Numbered from the stretch's first letter, positions 22,691-52,802 are shown. The stretch: DNA of 64,000 nucleotides from Camelus dromedarius (GCF_036321535.1 NC_087436.1:36892001-36956000); one strand, 5' to 3'. Notes: generated by a model from the sequence alone, not told the origin. Made by a program: numbers and translations.

Positions 22691-23589
22691 AAATGAGCCT
22701 GATCTAGCCCACTTCCCCAGCTTGAGTGGGAGAAAGAACTACTGTTCCTTTCATTTTCATTTTACGTCAATCTGAGGCTCTACCTTAGAGAACAGCCTTC
22801 CCGTTGGAGAGCCCTCCCTCCATGGTAATTCCAGTAACCCTGAGGCAAGCTTTCTCAGTTCCTGTGGGTAATGTTAATTACTCTTATCTCCTGGAGGGGT
22901 TGGACACACAGAAAACCTGCTTTCTCAGCCAAGGGGCCCTTTCCTGTCACGCTCATTGCTCTCATTATCATACTAAGGTGTTGGGAAAACACCAAGAGTC
23001 TGGTTATCCCTGTGCCACACTTCGTGTCCATTATTTGAGAATCTTCATCATCTTGGACATGTACTACCACCCAGATCTGGCAACTTACCAGCAGGCGCAA
23101 CCCCTGTTCCCTGAAGAAATTCCCTTGGGCTACCTAGGATTACACCACTGCTGTTGCCCTGACCATCATTCCCGCCACAGGGTGGGCAGAAGAAAAGCCT
23201 CTCTACTGGGCAGGCACGCAGAGCTGCCTTCATCCCCTGCCACCCAGAACGTCGCTGTTCTTCAGTCACTCGGTTCCTCAAGTCTACAGCAATGTATCCA
23301 AAGAGCCTTTGCCCAGGGCACTGTGAGCAGTGCCAGAATAGTGTGTTCTTGACGGATTTTCACCTCAGCCCCATGCTCTAGCTGGAGCCCTCCATCCCAT
23401 GCCACCCCACCCCTGGCTGCCTGTCTTGCATCTCATTCCCATGATGAAGCTTCACGCCACTCTCCATTCAGTTAAATGTGCCTTCCAAGTAACCATCCAA
23501 GTCCTAAGGAGATGTGTTGGTTAAAATGCCCTTAGTTTTAATTATCAAAAAAAAAAAAAAAAAAAAAAAAAAAGCCCAAAGATGAAAAA

Positions 23590-24475: not shown

Positions 24476-25890
24476 CAAAATGAAACTATAGTGCGAAGTG
24501 TTGTGCAGGTATTACAGATACTGAGATAAACAAAATCTCTTCAAAATTCAAAGAAGTCATGATCGGAGGATTCATATAGGTCCATAATCCATTATTATAC
24601 AGTGTTAGGAAACTTTCTATGATATGGGGCATCAAATCCAAGGTTGGGGAAGGCTATCCAAAGAGGATGACATGGAAGTGGAAACAAACAAAATCTGTGG
24701 GTATGACTTTGCCTGGTGAGGGACGAAGGGCTGCTGTGACTGCAGAGATAACAGGCTACCTGAGACTAGGTTAGTCTGACTGGGTCTGAGTGTTTGAGAA
24801 GAGCAAACGTAAAAGCTGGAGAGGTCAACACAGGCCTTCTAGGTCACGTTAAGGAGGTAGACTTTATCCCATGGGCAAAGGAAAGATGGAAACATCTCTG
24901 ATCCGTCACTCTCAGCACCCGGAGTGAAGGGACTTCGACTTGTGTGTCTAGGAGATTGGAAACAACCTCCATGAAGATGGTGAGAGGCCTCAGAGCTTGG
25001 CTGAAAGGAATGTGTGGGAAGCTAACTGGCCTACAAGACAGATGACCTAGAGTCTTGCCCCAGTTCTCCTACAATCTGTGCCCTTACGCTAGGGGGAACA
25101 GGGAAGGGAAAGAACACTTTCTGAATAGATCCACTCCTTAGGCTTAGGAATCTCTCCAGGCATAACAGAAAGTAGGCAAGTTCATCTCCCAGGACCAGAG
25201 GAGGATGAGTACGGAGGCCACTGTACAAACAAAGGCATCGAGGCACTAGGTGTGGTCATGCAAAGTGACCCGACTCAGAAGCAGGAGTGTGGTGAGGGGA
25301 GGATGCTGGATGAGTGAGAAGTAGCAGGATAGGAGTTGCAAAGGTATCTTAGGGCGGAGTTCAGTCCTGGAAGGATAGCAGACTAGTTCCTCTGAATGGC
25401 TCTCCACGATCACACTGCCAATTCCTTAAAACATTTTAAAAAGCATGCTTTTAAGAGAATTGCTCACCTCACAAGAAATCGAGAGAAATAGCTTAGGGCC
25501 AACTTATTCAAGTGATGGAGAGGATGATGAGGGAGACGGAAAATGCAGGTTTGTAAGGGAATTGGCCAGCTGAGTGACCTTCGAGAAGTCAGTTGGATCC
25601 TTTATCTCTCATTTTCCTTACGTGTGAAATGAGGGTGTGGGGCAAGGAGATCTCTAAGACCCCGGCTCTGATGCTCTCACTGTCTGGCAGCAGCGTGCTT
25701 TTCCTTCCAAGCCCTCAATTCACACAACTAACATTTACCACTCAGATCTCCAAGAGGCAGAGAGGACCTTTGGAAAGATCATAGAATTTCCTTCTTCTAT
25801 TCTTGTTGTCCTCTGGAAATGTAGACCCTAATAAATTATTCAGGACTTTAAAATTTTCTGGTAAAAATTAACATCAAGAATATTCAGCTT

Positions 25891-26627
25891 TTGTCACAAA
25901 GGTGCTTCATCTTTAAGATTCATAGGAACGTTATAGGAGTGGTTACAACAATTTCACATCATAATGATGGTTATGCAAGGATTCCAGCCCATACCACCCT
26001 CTGACTCAAAAACAAGAAGGTGTCCTGTCCCTGGGGCCCCTAGATTAGGCATTCAGAGATTTTTACTCCCTGACAGGCAGGGTCAACGCCCCTACTCAGC
26101 CCTGAAGTAGCTACGGAAGACAGACTTTCACCCTTCTGCACCCCAACAAGACTATGGGAGTAAAATCTCTGAGAGGCGAATGAGATAGGAAGGAAGGGGG
26201 CAGGGCACAGCCATTCCAGGAATGACACAGCAATTAACACCAAAGTGGCAGAAAATTTAACTCCCAACAGACCTTGAGGCCCAAGATAGTGGGAGATTTG
26301 ACTTCCAGTAGACTTTGAGCTTCATTATGTGCTCATTGTAATATATTAGCATGGTGAATGGCACTCCCACCGGCACCATGACAGTTCTGAGACTAACTGT
26401 GCCAGGCCAAAAAGTGGGCAGTGGCTAAATTCCTGGGAATTCCCGCCCCTTCCCCAAAGTAGTTGGAATAATCCTCCCACGTGTTAGCATATGAAATTAC
26501 AGACAGAGCTCATAAAAATTAACTCCCACACCTCGTGGCCACTCTCCCTTCTGAGTGAGATAGCCTGCACTCTGTCCATGGGTTATGTATCTTTCCGAAT
26601 ATATCAACGTTAACTCAAAAGAGACAA
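25891..26627 (+). mobile_element. ERV1 (MER41-like) 3' fragment: env C-terminal remnant, PPT-like stretch, LTR U3-R from 26181, A-tail remnant; processed (L1-type) insertion
   Basis: From 25943 translates LQQFHIIMMVMQGFQPIPPSD, resembling an ERV1 env cytoplasmic tail. LTR starts TGAGATAGGA at 26181 and contains CACTCCCACCGGCACCATGACAGTT and AATAATCCTCCCACGTGTTAGCATAT, resembling MER41. Flanked by a 15-bp direct repeat. Confidence 0.8.
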
Positions 26628-28804
26628 AAGAATATTCAGCTTGGTCAAAAGCAGCAGAGAAAAAGCAAATGCTATTTCATTTTTTAAAAATCTTAAATTT
26701 ACCTCATATCAAGTAAATAATGTAAACAGTGACTTCCAGAGAGGGGAGGGGAAATCACTTACTCAGGACAATGTTTCGCTCTGTTCCATCAGTAGTTTTA
26801 TAAGCAAAATTTCTAGCTTCAGGTATAGAAAAGTACTTAATGAATATTATCTTATGAAAATGATAATGTATTCACCTAAATGAGAAATTTGTGTGTTTTA
26901 ACAGGCTTATACTAATGTAAGAGTGAGTGTAATGTTAAGAAGTCATTCTCTTAAAAACATTTCTATTTCAGAGAAACAACATTCTGGGAAAACAGTGATT
27001 TAATTTTCTTTTTACATAAAAAAATACTTCACTTGAAAAAAGCACTCATTTGGTTATGCTTTTTTTTTTTGTTTCAAATAAATTATTTTTAGGTTTTAAA
27101 AGAGCCATTGAAAAGTTCTCTTTCAATAGGCTTCTCTCTTTCAGGAGGCTACTGTTGTTTCTCTTTGGGCTTACTATTTTTGCTTTGTTTCCAGACAAAA
27201 GGATTTATAAGCTTTTGTATTCGTGAAATCAGTGAGAAAAGACACAAACGCTCCTCAGAAGTACCTATGGAAATCTAATTTCAAACACATGTATGCAAAT
27301 TATTGGAAGAAAATAGGATGGAAGGAAAGAAGGGTGGAAGGGAAGGAAGGAGGGAGAAATCTATGATAAGGAAGAAAATATAAATTTTCATTAGCTAAAT
27401 ACATTTGCAAGTGCTGTGGGAAAATACTTATCCCTGCATCTTTCTCGCTCACCAGGCATGAAGTGTCATTAAGACCCTGTTATCACTTTTATTGTATCAC
27501 TTTTTAAATTTATCCTATGCTTAAGTCTCTTCTGGGGGGAATACACATTCTCATACAAGGTTTTGAAAATCACTCTGTAAGGAAATCTGTGAAAATCTAT
27601 ATAGTGTAACAGAAGGATGTGATTCAATGATTACTTGTCTTACCTACACCATAGGTAACATTTAGGGAAATATAAACCAACATCTTCCATTATTATAGGT
27701 AAGAATACTAATTTTCTTTCAGTGCTAAATAATATATTTCTTTCCAGTGGAATTAGCTTCTCTAAATGACAATAATTCATTCCCAGTCTTCCCCATTAGA
27801 AGAATTAGCAAACATGGTCAAATACTGAGGGAGAAAAGCAACCAAGTTAGGTCTTATTTGAAATATATTTAGTTTCTCTCAGTTCAACCCTCTTTATTTT
27901 ACCACTTTACTGACTGACATGCACCATTGTGTTTTGGTATTAGTGCATTTCTACATACGTCTCAAGAAATAGCCATTGACTAAATGACAGATTAATTTAC
28001 TGTACCCTCCCTTCTTTGGCTGGGAAAATATGTCAAGATCTCCAGAGCAAAAACACATGACTTTTTTTTCCTCCCCCATCTTTTAATCTACATCAGCAAA
28101 TGGGGAAGGAAGAAAGTTTTACACGCTATCCCTAAGTTGAAATCTCTGACAAAGGATAAAGACTGAAATGACAACTATGTTGTAAAGTTCTTACATGTTA
28201 CTAAACAGCTGTAGTCAAAGAACTAGGAGGTTCCAGAATTGTGCTTTGCTAAATGCCACTGAAATTGAACTCAAGGACAGGATTATCCACAAATGATGAG
28301 GTCATCAATGAAACACGACTAGGCTTAAGTACAAATTTATGTACAAATAGGAATGAGAAAAGCATGAATTTGTTATACTATATCAATGAAACGCAGGCAT
28401 GTTAAGCAGAAAAGTGATTCTCCCCATAGCAGAAACTGTCAATATAATTAATCAAATATGCTTATCTTCTTTCTGTTCCTGGCTTGACTTGTTATTTAAA
28501 TATTATTGATTTTTTTTAACATTTTATATTTTTACATCGAATACTTCTGAAATATGTCTGGAAGCTCCTTGACTTCAGGAAAAATTGTCTTTCAGAAATA
28601 TCTTCTTACAATGTCTTGCACTAGGTTGGTGTTCTATAAATATTGATTTGGATAATGAAATTAAACAAAAACTGACTTTAATCTGAGCAATTTGGTTTAA
28701 AAATTTTCTTCTACTTAGAAATAACACATGGTCAGTGCAGAAAATTTGGAAAACACAGAAAAGCTAAAGGAAAATTTAAAAGTCATCACAAATTCTAAAC
28801 ACCT

Positions 28805-29243
28805 TGTCAACTTCAAAAATAAAATAGCAAGTTATTTTACTAGCAAAATGAGTTTATTTGGGAATGGTAGAGGAATTACAATTCAGGACATGCAAACTAT
28901 GGCAAAGCATAGGTAAGTTCAGAGAACAAAGGAGAGGAATGTTATTTTTTAGAGAAAAAGGGGGAGTTGGGAGGGGCTGCTCTGAAATGCAAGTTCATTG
29001 GAGGAAAGTGGGAGTTTAGAGTGGTAACGGTTTGTCATTGGTTGAGTTGTTGCAGTTCTCATTGGCTGGGCTGTTGCTAGGCAAGGAAAAAAATCTTCCT
29101 TTCTCCTGCTAGGGTAGTAAGGTCAGCTTCTTCCTGCTCAGGGATGGGCAGTAAGCTGGGACAGAAGGTCCGTGCCTGAGGGTTCTCCCTTTAGGGTTTC
29201 TTAACTCCATTTTAAATGCGGTTTCCCTTTATTAATTTTCACA
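28805..29243 (-). mobile_element. Solo ERV1-class LTR (439 bp)
   Basis: TG...CA termini (TGTCAA... / ...TTCACA), perfect 4-bp TSD ACCT at 28801-28804 and 29244-29247; minus-strand AATAAA and CCAAT boxes. Confidence 0.85.
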
Positions 29244-41741: not shown

Positions 41742-41824
41742 GGGGGGAGGTATAGCTCAGTGGTAGAGTACATGCTTAGCATGCACAAGGTCCTGTGTTC
41801 AATTACCTCCATTAAAAAAAAAAA
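41742..41824 (+). mobile_element. Short tRNA-Ala-derived SINE copy (head + poly-A only)
   Basis: GGTATAGCTCAGTGGTAGAG head, small deletion after the B box, poly-A; perfect 13-bp TSD AAGAATAAAAATG at 41729-41741 and 41825-41837. Confidence 0.9.
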
Positions 41825-43150: not shown

Positions 43151-44555
43151 TGTGAGGATTTTAACACTTCTATATGTACTGGTATGGGAAAAGTGCTTCC
43201 AACTGTAAAACACTAATATTACTTATTTGTTTTTTCTGTACCAGATATGTAAATAAACAGCATTGCTTCCTTAAACATACAGACATTATCATCTTAATAA
43301 AACACACAGTGTATTATTTACTTTTTAAGACTGTAGTTCAAAACAGCTAATTTTCCTTGTTTTTTGTTTAAATTCGAGAAGAACTGCTCTTCAAAAATAT
43401 AGTATAATTGAATACAGTTAAAAATGAGTATCTTATTTTATTTCATTGTAGCATATCTGGTATTTTTGTGATTCTTCCAAGTTGAACTTGCTGGAAAGCG
43501 ATTCATCTGAAGCAACAGAAAGCTTTGGAAAATACACTCACCTAATTCTAACGAGTTTTTTCACTACCTCGAATAGTTTACGCAGTCTCTAAGCCTCAGT
43601 GTTCTTATTTCTCAAACAAGAGATAAATACTTTGATCCCTAAAACTTCTTCTGACTAAAATTCCATGAGTCTATTTCTCCCAGAAGAAATATTGCTCTTG
43701 AATTTTAAAATGCAATTTTTAAGTTTTAAAAGAGATACTTTAAATTTTGCTGGAAAATATGTCTTTAAAAAAGTACATAAATCTTGTTAGTCGCTTTGGG
43801 GATTCATAAAAAATAACCCCTAAAGCACCAAGCATGATTAAAACATCACCATTCTTGGGGTACAAAAACTCAGGGGAACGTACTTAAACCTCTGTGGGTT
43901 CAGCTAAATCAACACGACGAACAAATGATGCTTTTGAAACATCAAACAACAAATGAAACAAATATAAAGTTACATAGGATAAATACGAATGCAGGAAAAT
44001 GAACAAGCCAGGCGATTTCCATTTCCCCTCGTTAGGAAACTTGTATCTGTAAATGGAAAAGGGCTCTTTTGGAAGAGGAGTGGGAGGACGGAGAGGGAAG
44101 TTTCTCTGATTTCCTTACTCCCTACCTGCTGGTTTGTCTGATTCCCTCTCCAGCTCTCACTGTCTGATAAGGAATTGATTCTTCCACTCCTCTCCCCCTC
44201 CCTCCCTCCCTCCCTCTCTTTCCTTCACCCTGAGTAACGGTACTGTCCTAGCAAGTGATGCTGTCGGAGACAGGAGACGGGCACCGAGGAGGCATCGCCC
44301 TCGCAGCCGCGGGGCGGGAGAGCCTTTCCCAGCACCAGCTCCCGGCTCGGCCCCGGGCTCCCTCCTCGCAGCCACGGGCGCAGCGGCTGCCCCCACGGTT
44401 TGATGGTGGGCGGCGGCGGCGACTCTGCTTTGGTTCCCGCCTCTAACTGCTCGGTCTCGGGCCGCACGGTTCGGTCTTCCTGCCTCTCGGCCCGGGCCCG
44501 CCCGGGACTGCAGGAGCCGCGGGAAGTGGGGAAGGGGCGCAGCGGGAAGACCGCG

Positions 44556-44579
44556 CGGCGGCGGCGGCGGCGGCGGCGG
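44556..44579 (+). repeat. (CGG)8 trinucleotide repeat in the TRPC3 5'UTR
   Basis: Eight uninterrupted CGG units ending 45 nt upstream of the ATG. Confidence 0.95.
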
Positions 44580-44623
44580 AGGCCAGCAGCCGGCATCCCG
44601 GCGCTGGGGCCGCGGCCGGAGCG

Positions 44624-44838
44624 ATGTCCACCAAGGTCAGGAAGTGCAAGGAGCAAGCGAGGGTGACCTTCCCCGCGCCGGAGGAGGAGGAGGAGGAGGG
44701 CGAGGACCAAGGCGCGGAGCCGCAGCGCCGCCGGCGGGGCTGGAGGGGCGTCAACGGGGGGCTGGAGCCGCGCTTGGCGCCCTTGCAGCGGGAACCTCAC
44801 GGCTACTGCCCGCCGCCCAGCTCCCCGGGGCCCGACAT
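44624..44838 (+). CDS. TRPC3: TRPC3 (short transient receptor potential channel 3), first coding exon of the long N-terminally extended isoform; partial CDS, continues beyond the window
   Basis: Translation MSTKVRKCKEQARVTFPAPEEEEEEGEDQGAEPQRRRRGWRGVNGGLEPRLAPLQREPHGYCPPPSSPGPD closely matches the recalled N-terminus of human TRPC3 long isoform (MSTKVRKCKEQARVTFPAPEEEEDEGEDEGAEPQRRRRGWRGVNGGLEP...). ATG has G at -3. The exon ends in phase 2 at a consensus donor AT|GTGAGT (GT at 44839-44840). Lies in a CpG island. Confidence 0.95.
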
Positions 44839-45875
44839 GTGAGTACCCGGCCGGCCGCGGCCCCGCGCCTCGAGAGGACAGGGCTGGGGCGGGTAGGCTC
44901 GCCCCCGGCGGTCCCGTAATGTATCCCGGACCCCCAGAGCCCACCCTCCACGACAGTTATATTCGGGGCGACTTGAGGGTAGACCTAGGCCGGGGTCTCG
45001 CCCCCTTGGTCCTGCTTTGTGGAGGGACTTGGGGGGCCACCGAAGGCGTGGCAGGGGTCTGTGCCGGCTCGAGCCTCGAGCGCTCGGAACAGCCCCGCCG
45101 ACTGACACGACGGATGCCAAACAAGCTTTCCAGTAAGCGGACGCCTGCTCTCCTATAACCAAGGAGCCGCGCACCGCTACCCCATAGTCGGAGGACCCCG
45201 CGGATAAAAGGACCCCGGGGTCCCCGAGCTTACCCCGGGAGGTCAATGAAGGGGAAGGTGTGCTTAGACCCAGGCGCGCACTCGAATCCCGACCTCCTCC
45301 GCGGCGTCCAGCGTGGCCCCACCCTGGGAACCCGAGTCGCCTCAGACGCTCCGGGCCGTCGAGAATGAGAAGGGAGGGGACCGTGTGCGATACCGAGTGT
45401 GGGCTGAAGGTTTGCCCTGTCGCCTCTTTTCCCGACGGTCCATTTACAGTCGGGGGGAAAACTGGAGCCGAAGCCCCAGCGGGTCTCTCGGGGAGAGAGT
45501 GGGCGCGGGGCGGCCTCCGGAACTTGGTTGTAGTTCCCAGGCGGCTGAGGGTCAGTAGCTGTTTCTTTTTTAAAGGAAGGTAGAGGTCGGCGCTTTAATG
45601 TGTGAGGAAGAGCAACTTTTTCTTAATTTCCAGATCTTGGAAGTAGCCTTTAACCAGCTGCGAGACGCAGAGAGATGAAAAAGAGGGTGGTTAGTTGTAT
45701 AGGGGTGCATGCTCTTTATTTCTTTTGTCACGTACCTTGGGCGTGTCGCGAAGTTTACTGTCTTTATTTTAGGAAGAACGCACGGATAGGTAGAGGACTT
45801 GGGGCCAGTCTTGGCGGGCGGCACTCACCGCCTGGGCCGGGTAACTAATTTTCCCGGGAAGGGACGGAGGTTCTG

Positions 45876-45894
45876 CAGCGCCCCCTGCTGCCCA
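45876..45894 (-). promoter_or_regulatory. Candidate CTCF site at the 3' edge of the CpG island
   Basis: Minus strand reads TGGGCAGCAGGGGGCGCTG, close to the CTCF core CCASYAGRKGGCRS (one mismatch). Confidence 0.6.
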
Positions 45895-47147
45895 CGTGCT
45901 GTGCATAGCCCGCGTGCGAGACCTCTGGGGCGACCCCGAACCGACCTGATCTCGTGCTGCTTATCTGGCTCAGAGCCCGCACCTGGCTCGGCCGGACTTG
46001 CTTACAGAAAACAGAAATCAGTGTCCGGGAGTAGATCGCCTAGGGAAGGTCTCTGATTGAAAATGAGCAACGCATGCAGACGAGGTTCAATTACTGCTGA
46101 AGATTAGCCTGGAGTGGAACAGGCCCAGGAAATGGAGGGAAGGTATGTCCTTTGGGATTAAAGCGCGGCTAGCTCTCTTCCCGCCTCACCTAAGGTTTTA
46201 AACAGATTGTCCATTTTTCCGTTTGCCAGTTTGGTTTTTTTGAATTTCTTAATTCTTTTATTGATTTGTTTTTTTGTTTTATCTTAAATCCCCACTAAAA
46301 GGGACACCAGAGCATTCTTATCTGAGGAAGTAGGGCGAAGCAGAGGTTCCACACTTTGCTTTTTGAAGCTTGAGGTCAATTACACAAAGCATTGGGACAA
46401 ATTCTATTGTAGACTTGCTGTCTAACTGGTAATAGAACGAACATTTTTCCTATCTGCCGACTTTACAAAATTCAACAGGTAAATGTAGCGTACTTATTTT
46501 GTGAAGCGACCTAGAAGACCCAGTCATTTGGAGGAGACACATGTTAATAAATGTTCTTTCTGGAAGCAGGGCAGCAAGCTCTTCATGTTTCTTTGCGTCC
46601 TGTCACTTGGTAGCCTTAGAGACGCACTTAATATCTGTAGCACAGATTAGCTCTTTATTCCATCTTTGAGTGGAATATGGCCACAGTTTAATAGCCCAGA
46701 AAGTGAACATACACTCCTAGGATGGAAATGGAGAAGGATACCCAGTTTACCAAAGCCCCAGGGTCATTTTCAGTAGGCAGAACAGAACAGCCGAATTTAA
46801 CATTCAGCAAGATGAATCCCACTTTTAAACCACAAAGATTCCTTAGCAGAACCCTGTTGCTCATTTCACTGCTCCATGTTCTAGTATTCCATTCAGAAAT
46901 TTTAAACAGACTAGCTTAGGAAGGAAGTGTCATCTGCTTTAGCACTAACAAGACTTTTTTTTTTAATCCTTTGCTAGAACTCTTAATTCAACCATTGATT
47001 CAAACCAAGACTTCCTTTTTCCCAATTGTTTTGCAAACCTAGGACCAAGAAGTATGTTACTGGCAAGATGAATTTATTCTTGAAGTTTTTGGTTATTAAA
47101 TATGATTGATGAACTCCAAAAGCATTTGAAGGGCATTCTTGTGAATT

Positions 47148-52688: not shown

Positions 52689-52802
52689 TGGAGGAGGGGG
52701 AGCAATTAGATATATTTATTTATTTAATGGAGGTACTGGGGATTGAACCCAGGACCTCATGCATGCTACATATGCACTCTACCACTGAGCTATACCCTCC
52801 TC
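52689..52802 (-). mobile_element. tRNA-Ala-derived SINE (Vic-1-like), antisense in intron 1
   Basis: Minus strand GGGTATAGCTCAGTGGTAGAG...GGTCCTGGGTTCAATCCCCAGTACCTCCA; 16-bp TSD CTAT(T/A)CAGTGTGATTT at 52673-52688 and 52803-52818. Confidence 0.92.

Follow-up and report, generated by a model that had tools for sequence, protein, structure and literature searches.

SINE-R, which derives from HERV-K, forms part of SVA, a self-propagating composite element. Among the human endogenous retroviruses (ERVs), HERV-W is described as the sole group to have been mobilised by L1 as processed pseudogenes, for reasons that the relevant passages of PMC5537654 and PMC5016936 treat as unclear; according to the former, the determinants that limit L1 capture to HERV-W remain to be clarified. 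These copies are recognised by a 5–15-bp target-site duplication and a TT/AAAA-like insertion site (PMC5537654, PMC5016936), TT/AAAA being the site of the L1 endonuclease (PMC5537654). Spliced HERV-W pseudogenes exist, and PMC6995185 records no processed copies of the close relatives in New World monkeys (Platyrrhini). In the tarsier, TINE1, TINE2 and TINE3 start at the TATA box of an LTR, end at its poly(A) signal and are attributed to L1 (PMC5059674). MER41-like LTR families exist in artiodactyls, and the passage of PMC7281430 that deals with them does so without reference to L1 mobilisation.

Here, we describe an insert within a 64 000 nt stretch of DNA from Camelus dromedarius (GCF_036321535.1, NC_087436.1:36892001-36956000; hereafter, the window), for which the initial annotation had proposed retroposition of an ERV transcript by L1. 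Retroposition of the L1 type is supported by a 15-bp duplication, a tail, a 3′ end shared with relatives and the L1 hallmarks of the wider family. We consider it highly likely that the insert is a processed retrocopy of class I (gamma-like) ERV RNA, made by L1. HERV-W differs in being another ERV family in another host order. The window locus is one ordinary member of a family-wide habit.

Anatomy of the window copy

The insert and its flanking repeats comprise the following features.

25876..25890, + strand: left target-site duplication, 15 bp; insertion site TC/AAGA
25891..25941, + strand: internal ERV sequence, 5′-truncated, upstream of the junction of a gap of ~410 nt
25942..26170, + strand: remnant of the env cytoplasmic tail (LQQF... 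from 25943), together with 3′ untranslated internal sequence
26171..26180, + strand: polypurine tract (PPT), with one C substitution in the window copy; a purine run precedes the TG in relatives
26181..26535, + strand: U3 of the 3′ LTR, with a TATA-like box at 26511–26518; 3′ limit inferred from the start sites of relatives
26536..26616, + strand: R region, one-unit variant, with the poly(A) hexamer AATATA at 26598–26603
26617..26627, + strand: decayed poly(A) tail, 11 nt, at the family cleavage site
26628..26642, + strand: right target-site duplication, 15 bp

The two 15-mers, first described as a perfect direct repeat, have 0 mismatches to each other and enclose 737 bp, and no third copy was found in the whole window with up to 2 mismatches allowed. 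A shuffle control for the 15-mer (mean of 0.46 matches, with 11 of 100 shuffles reaching 2) is weak, because matches with up to 2 mismatches were counted. The stronger argument for a 15-bp duplication is that both 15-mers stand at the edges of family homology, relatives matching from query position 1 or 2 to 730–737. The TC/AAGA insertion site is a variant of the L1 endonuclease site TT/AAAA. Since relatives continue upstream of 25891, this position is a truncation end. The right junction was crossed with 0 differences by a contig of public run X15, and the left junction was crossed by only 28 letters, too few to count as bridged. None of the 15 joints listed of 91, from four runs assembled over the locus, skipped the insert to leave an empty site. 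Of 24 sequencing runs listed, 15, all from one organism and drawn from 7 studies, hold 0.86–0.94 of the words, which indicates presence, not fixation.

The description of the internal sequence and LTR also held up. An LQQF... frame was found from 25943, and we take it to be an env tail from its apparent resemblance to such tails and from its location between pol and the PPT. The purine run before the TG occurs in relatives too, and all 30 best matches align at the LTR start TG at 26181; loose ends lie just before this position in 139 contigs of run X15. The hexamer AATATA, which aligns to AATAAA in the family, is followed 13 nt later by the tail, as described. The window copy tracks the intact LTR of relative L008 through R to the first base of U5 and then becomes tail; the tail begins where L008 enters U5, and its first two A's are templated. 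The initial annotation had reported that U5 is missing, and none was detected in the window, where a real U5 scored 23–34 against 20–32 for shuffles and 145 for a true U5 pair. An ACCT-flanked LTR offered there for comparison is real (28805–29243, with 4-bp ACCT repeats), but it belongs to a different family.

It is very improbable that the insert is a provirus remnant trimmed by DNA deletion or repair, with a direct repeat and an A-rich run placed by chance. The copy is old (U3 terminal branch of 0.096; best U3 identity of 88 %) and its tail is decayed, and deletions of the microhomology type do occur in the family, where at least one join (L024, L045) looks like such an event. However, the perfect 15-bp repeat lies at both ends of the homology, and the copy ends on a base common to hundreds of tailed copies, with no U5 in the window.

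Like HERV-W processed pseudogenes, the window copy has a 3′ LTR shortened to U3-R where poly(A) was added; it also shares the tail and a long duplication, here of 15 bp and with TC/AAGA. It is also like SINE-R, in which the 3′ end of env and a truncated LTR ending in poly(A) were moved by L1; unlike SINE-R, it is a one-off, and its 5′ end is not a shared fixed start. Many matches began at query position 2 or 51, and a fixed family 5′ start at 25891 or 25941 was considered and rejected, because relatives continue upstream and query position 51 is the junction of the missing segment. The distance from the TATA box to the hexamer is 86 nt in the window copy; among the 23 U5-bearing LTRs in which it could be measured, it is 87 and 91 nt in two and 145–188 nt in the others. 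Most relatives have two R units of ~95 nt, and the window copy has one. Within U3, positions 26430–26439 read TTC-N4-GAA, one base longer than what we take to be the GAS spacing (the STAT1 GAS motif).

A family with two kinds of 3′ end

Genome-wide scans covered 2.31 Gb in 171 contigs. The 737 bases match a large family, with 5153 first-look candidates, of which 40 were scored, and the best relatives are 76–83 % identical. Among the 30 best matches, the window copy included, 23 have an A-rich tail at the same base, five continue into U5 (L008, L014, L018, L024 and L028) and two end otherwise (L015 and L023). This distribution, together with the alignment to the L008 LTR, bears out the proposed stop at the R/U5 boundary. 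The query, lacking U5, is not expected to bias the result towards one 3′ end or the other, its short tail apart. At the shared base, relatives have pure poly(A) tails.

Genome-wide, an exact 25-nt motif returned 194 tailed against 615 U5-continuing matches, and a 32-nt motif with up to 3 mismatches returned 648 against 2503, with 0 for reversed-pattern controls. The proposal that the family spread partly as L1-mobilised RNA is supported, among other results, by this count of 648 poly(A)-ended and 2503 U5-continuing matches. In all, 90 loci were read, and class proportions were taken from samples of 30. The first 30 U5-type loci have no adjoining internal or leader sequence in the sense orientation. 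Among internal-bearing copies, the L1-made share is 23 of 30 here, against 135 of 213 reported for HERV-W (PMC5537654, PMC5016936).

The two kinds of copy contrast in the length of their target-site duplications. A duplication score of at least 10 was reached by 13 of 29 tailed loci (L033, which runs off its locus, was left out), against 2 of 145 mismatched controls. For longer copies, a score of at least 9 was reached by 9 of 19 (L003, L006, L016 and L026 were left out for the same reason), against 7 of 95 controls, one of which scored 15; this scoring missed the window's own repeat, as the boundary was overshot. Many tailed copies have no convincing duplication (16 of the 29 score below 10, and 10 of the 19 longer copies below 9). 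In U5-bearing (solo) LTRs, an exact 4-bp repeat was found in 13 of the 19 whose ends could be located, out of 30. In the 18 copies listed that have a supporting duplication, the sequence after the nick is A-rich. In one copy (L012), the 5′ part is inverted, within a 14-bp duplication, and in another (L037) a full-length U6 (Rfam, 90 bits, model positions 1–105) is fused to R and a tail; 5′ inversion and U6 chimeras are known L1 outcomes (PMC4476161).

Outside placental mammals, LINEs other than L1 can give rise to U6 chimeras as well (PMC4476161). In the present family, poly(A), duplications of ~10–18 bp that start with A runs, 5′ inversion and the U6 chimera match the signatures described for L1 (PMC5537654, PMC4476161), and we judge it most unlikely that an RTE- or L2-type LINE supplied the enzyme in place of L1.

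The U5-bearing and internal-bearing relative L028 has rve (integrase core) and MLVIN_C domains, and the family is classed as class I (gamma-like) because this relative combines an integrase core with an MLV-type C-terminal domain. The class I features found are this C-terminal domain (in L028, not in the window), 4-bp duplications, a TG...CA LTR and a PPT. In its gamma-like class, its TG...CA LTR and its 4-bp duplications, the family is like the MER41-like families as far as the published passage describes them. The name 'MER41-like', given in the initial annotation, is provisional, and the family may also resemble the MER41-like ones in the U3 end, R and U5.

Membership of ERV-W appears not to be supported by these comparisons. 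None of the 120 integrase relatives listed, of 202, is a named HERV-W match; the best identities are 46–57 %, and only to unnamed or generic entries. The primer site, seen in L022 and L027, may be of Lys type and does not appear Trp- or Arg-like, unlike that of HERV-W. R is about 80–180 nt in this family, against about 70 nt in the HERV-W LTR as described (LTR17 256–326). The family is nonetheless like HERV-W processed pseudogenes in the U3-R 3′ end, in the R-U5 5′ end of full-length copies (here L007 and L022), and in poly(A), long duplications, TT/AAAA-like sites and the splicing of some copies.

Short R-only copies

The first 30 exact tailed matches comprise four with internal sequence, five that begin inside U3 and 21 without a TATA box, the last being mostly R region and tail (R-only copies). 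One of the poly(A) loci (L047) duplicates L022; it was counted in the 30 and left out of the tree described below. Scaling 21 of 30 to the 648 tailed matches gives an estimate of ~450 R-only copies, a rough lower bound from a sample drawn from contigs C1–C4. Such abundance is a difference from HERV-W as described.

The 5′ starts of these copies are shared. Eighteen of the 21 TATA-less copies start about +18 to +50 from the TATA box, and 3 of the 30 loci start later than +50. Where a duplication defines the 5′ end of a TATA-less copy, 10 of 14 start at +23 to +27 (L040 included) and the other four at +18, +34, +39 and +49; the 5′ ends of L034 and L044 were taken from duplications. The full-length copies L007 and L022 start at +22 and +24 after the TATA box. 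We infer that the shared 5′ starts correspond to the transcription start.

Short copies could also have arisen from long transcripts if reverse transcription tended to drop off on reaching the C/T-rich beginning of R; such preferential truncation is the principal rival reading. This stretch is indeed variable as well as C/T-rich, and the scattered starts at +18, +34, +39 and +49 and the three loci beyond +50 are in keeping with such drop-off. However, the spacing between TATA box and start cluster is the textbook one, and the cluster coincides with the point where full-length R-U5 copies begin; in these, reverse transcription had gone through one R without a stop. In addition, the ~330 nt of U3 contain the ends of only 5 of the 30 copies, and a stretch of about 35 nt contains those of 18. 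We therefore regard truncation at R as unlikely.

For the window copy, the main rival is host read-through, in which L1 copied a host or L1 read-through RNA that used a family 3′ LTR as its poly(A) site. Because it is 5′-truncated, inside internal sequence and with its start lost, the window copy cannot show whether its RNA began at an LTR or at a host promoter, and about 2500 family LTR poly(A) signals are scattered across the genome. Against read-through, surviving 5′ ends (L007, L022 and the R-only copies) lie 22–27 nt after the LTR TATA box, and duplication-bearing tailed copies begin in or adjoining family sequence, not in long host sequence; the exceptions are the U6 chimera and a handful of copies with a short addition at the 5′ end (L010, for example). 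Read-through is, in our assessment, quite unlikely, and a transcript started in the LTR is the reading that we prefer.

A tree built from 57 U3 rows shows tailed copies and solo LTRs intermixed (18 changes, against a shuffled mean of 18.8); its supports are rough, the bootstrap not being fully settled (9 of 54 branches flagged). The median nearest identity is 0.90 among R-only copies, 0.92 between R-only copies and solo LTRs and 0.91 among solo LTRs. A SINE with a single master was considered and rejected on the mixing in the tree and on these identities. Since the tree mixes and the identities are similar, many LTRs were sources, at about the time when the family spread. R-only copies carry no promoter, and they are thus dead ends fed by many LTRs and not a self-propagating SINE.

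R-only copies are like TINEs in being short, in carrying poly(A) and a long duplication, in beginning after the TATA box and in ending at their own poly(A) signal. They number ~450 as an extrapolated lower bound, against 29,041 and 1,668 copies given for TINEs (PMC5059674). TINEs are described as having arisen long after their LTR fell silent (PMC5059674), whereas R-only copies are about as diverged as solo LTRs. Unlike TINEs as described, the same family here also made long and spliced copies.

Spliced copies and source RNAs

A leader follows U5 and ends at a GG/GTGAG donor, which is unspliced in L018; genome-wide, the leader donor motif gave 87 matches against 10 for the control. In four tailed copies (L007, L022, L019 and L027), this donor has been joined to one or another of three AG sites close to the 3′ end. 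Two of these, L007 and L022, are complete R-U5...U3-R-poly(A) units of ~1.5 kb with 11–13-bp duplications.

A second segment, of 385–412 nt, is present in 7 of the 30 best matches and covers the degenerate membrane-proximal end of env. It starts with GT in four of five aligned copies (one base off in L006) and ends with a pyrimidine-rich AG. The window copy is missing this segment of ~410 nt at 25941/25942, and the initial annotation mentioned neither this gap nor the much larger R-only class. Motif counts across the genome were 50 for the canonical joined form and 17 for the unjoined acceptor, and the join lies at the canonical donor in 13 of the 19 joined copies listed. In the window copy, the junction falls exactly on the acceptor, position 25942 being precisely the AG acceptor seen in segment-bearing relatives. 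At the donor side, the window copy, L002, L005, L014 and L025 are 4 nt short and L026 is about 3 nt short. Because it lies 4 nt short of the canonical donor, the window junction is not a clean splice signature. The segment is absent from all five U5-bearing copies too; for this reason, splicing of the window RNA itself at 25941/25942 was not accepted as shown. A spliced RNA probably became a provirus early in the history of the family, so that the window copy would have inherited the gap from its source provirus.

In the mechanism that best fits these sequences, RNA would have started in the LTR of a provirus and received its poly(A) tail where R meets U5 in the 3′ LTR. L1 ORF2p would then nick an A/T-rich target, prime on the poly(A) tail and, in the case of the window copy, stop after about 730 nt. 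The resulting insert would be truncated at its 5′ end, end in a tail in place of U5 and be flanked by a duplication of 15 bp. L1 appears to be the enzyme that acted on capped, polyadenylated LTR transcripts. Three types of RNA may have been fed to it: long internal transcripts, mostly recovered in 5′-truncated form, the window copy among them; spliced full-length transcripts with the structure R-U5-leader...env-tail-U3-R; and short transcripts that would run from a start shortly downstream of the TATA box to the poly(A) site within that same LTR.

The short RNAs seem to come mainly from solo LTRs. Solo LTRs, which are without a leader donor, might use their own poly(A) site to give RNAs of 140–180 nt, and proviruses might read through the promoter-proximal poly(A) site to give long and spliced RNAs. 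In HIV-1, U1 masks the promoter-proximal poly(A) signal. By analogy, we hypothesize that a downstream splice donor masks this signal in proviruses of the present family. In the RNA-labelled runs X16, X18 and X19, contigs over the LTR come from other family copies, and we draw no conclusion on expression from them because contigs cannot show starts, ends or strand.

We suggest tentatively, with rather more doubt than confidence, that this is an unreported non-primate ERV family in which L1 made most of the surviving internal-bearing copies and solo LTRs were a dispersed source of R-only copies. A search of the open literature, subscription journals, Repbase and Dfam apart, found neither L1-processed ERV copies nor TINE-like ones described for any non-primate. 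In the sections of a camelid repeat survey available as PMC8605555, neither 'MER41' nor 'solo' appears, and short non-autonomous ERV1 clusters are described in alpaca. The R-only class may already be listed by repeat curators.

If the suggestion is correct, HERV-W pseudogenes and TINEs would represent alternative products of a single process, the choice depending on use of the promoter-proximal poly(A) site, and the copies would amount to a fossil map of where transcripts of an extinct element started, were spliced and were polyadenylated. For the question of what makes an ERV RNA a substrate for L1, a comparison is offered by a separate family, from a different order of mammals, that yielded both long and R-only copies. 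Such copies are likely to be labelled as 'truncated LTR', which could inflate counts of retroviral insertions and mislead LTR-based dating. With the element itself beyond the reach of any virus assay, its copies supply start, poly(A) and splice positions at single-base resolution. Copies of ERV RNA made by L1, very short and SINE-like ones among them, are a pattern best known from primates, and the family described here has several hundred tailed copies.

Nested copies and R units next to small-RNA-derived sequence

Members of the insert's class I (gamma-like) ERV family were found inside one another. At locus L002 (G000:C12 of the searched genome, locus positions 1193-1390), an R-only tailed copy, consisting mostly of the R region and a poly(A) tail, sat within internal sequence belonging to a second tailed family member. 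The nested copy had a duplication of ~15 bp, and the outer copy had a separate 16-bp duplication of its own. At locus L061 (421-1622), a family LTR was inserted within another family LTR.

R was also observed beside sequence derived from small RNAs. Locus L037 (1338-1535), in which a full-length U6 snRNA runs into R unit two and then a poly(A) tail, is a U6/ERV-LTR chimera, and is flanked by an imperfect repeat of ~12 bp. At locus L060 (1247-1400), a tRNA-derived, SINE-like head with an A-rich tail was followed directly by an R-only copy.

U5-bearing copies and clustering on one contig

Among the copies that continue past the poly(A) site into U5, L008 (G000:C14, around 20184.0-20185.6 kb) has a complete 3' LTR and an inverted piece of U5 at its 5' end, so that both of its ends are U5 termini. 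The flanks carry a 4-bp repeat with one mismatch, and the locus is possibly an aberrant integrase product. An inverted U5 piece was likewise seen at L018, where another copy of the family also lies in reverse orientation. A further U5-bearing copy, L028, has a stop-free stretch of 316 residues (198-1145) containing an integrase core and an MLV-type C-terminal domain.

Contig G000:C38 contained 5 of the 40 leader hits, as well as four donor-motif matches, all with one and the same variant. This concentration on a single contig suggests that one family copy was locally amplified there.

Other features of the window

The insert was not found to lie within any gene. The window has the following other features:

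23548-23573, long stretch of A, 2.3 kb upstream from the insert
28805-29243, solo LTR, from another family than the insert, flanked by 4-bp repeats
41746-41811, + strand, tRNA-like head
44000-46000, GC-rich island (GC 0.645)
near 44620 in this island, + strand, likely first coding exon
52728-52799, - strand, tRNA-like head

The solo LTR had 385 candidates genome-wide, many of them aligned over just part of its length. Both tRNA-like heads probably represent SINEs.
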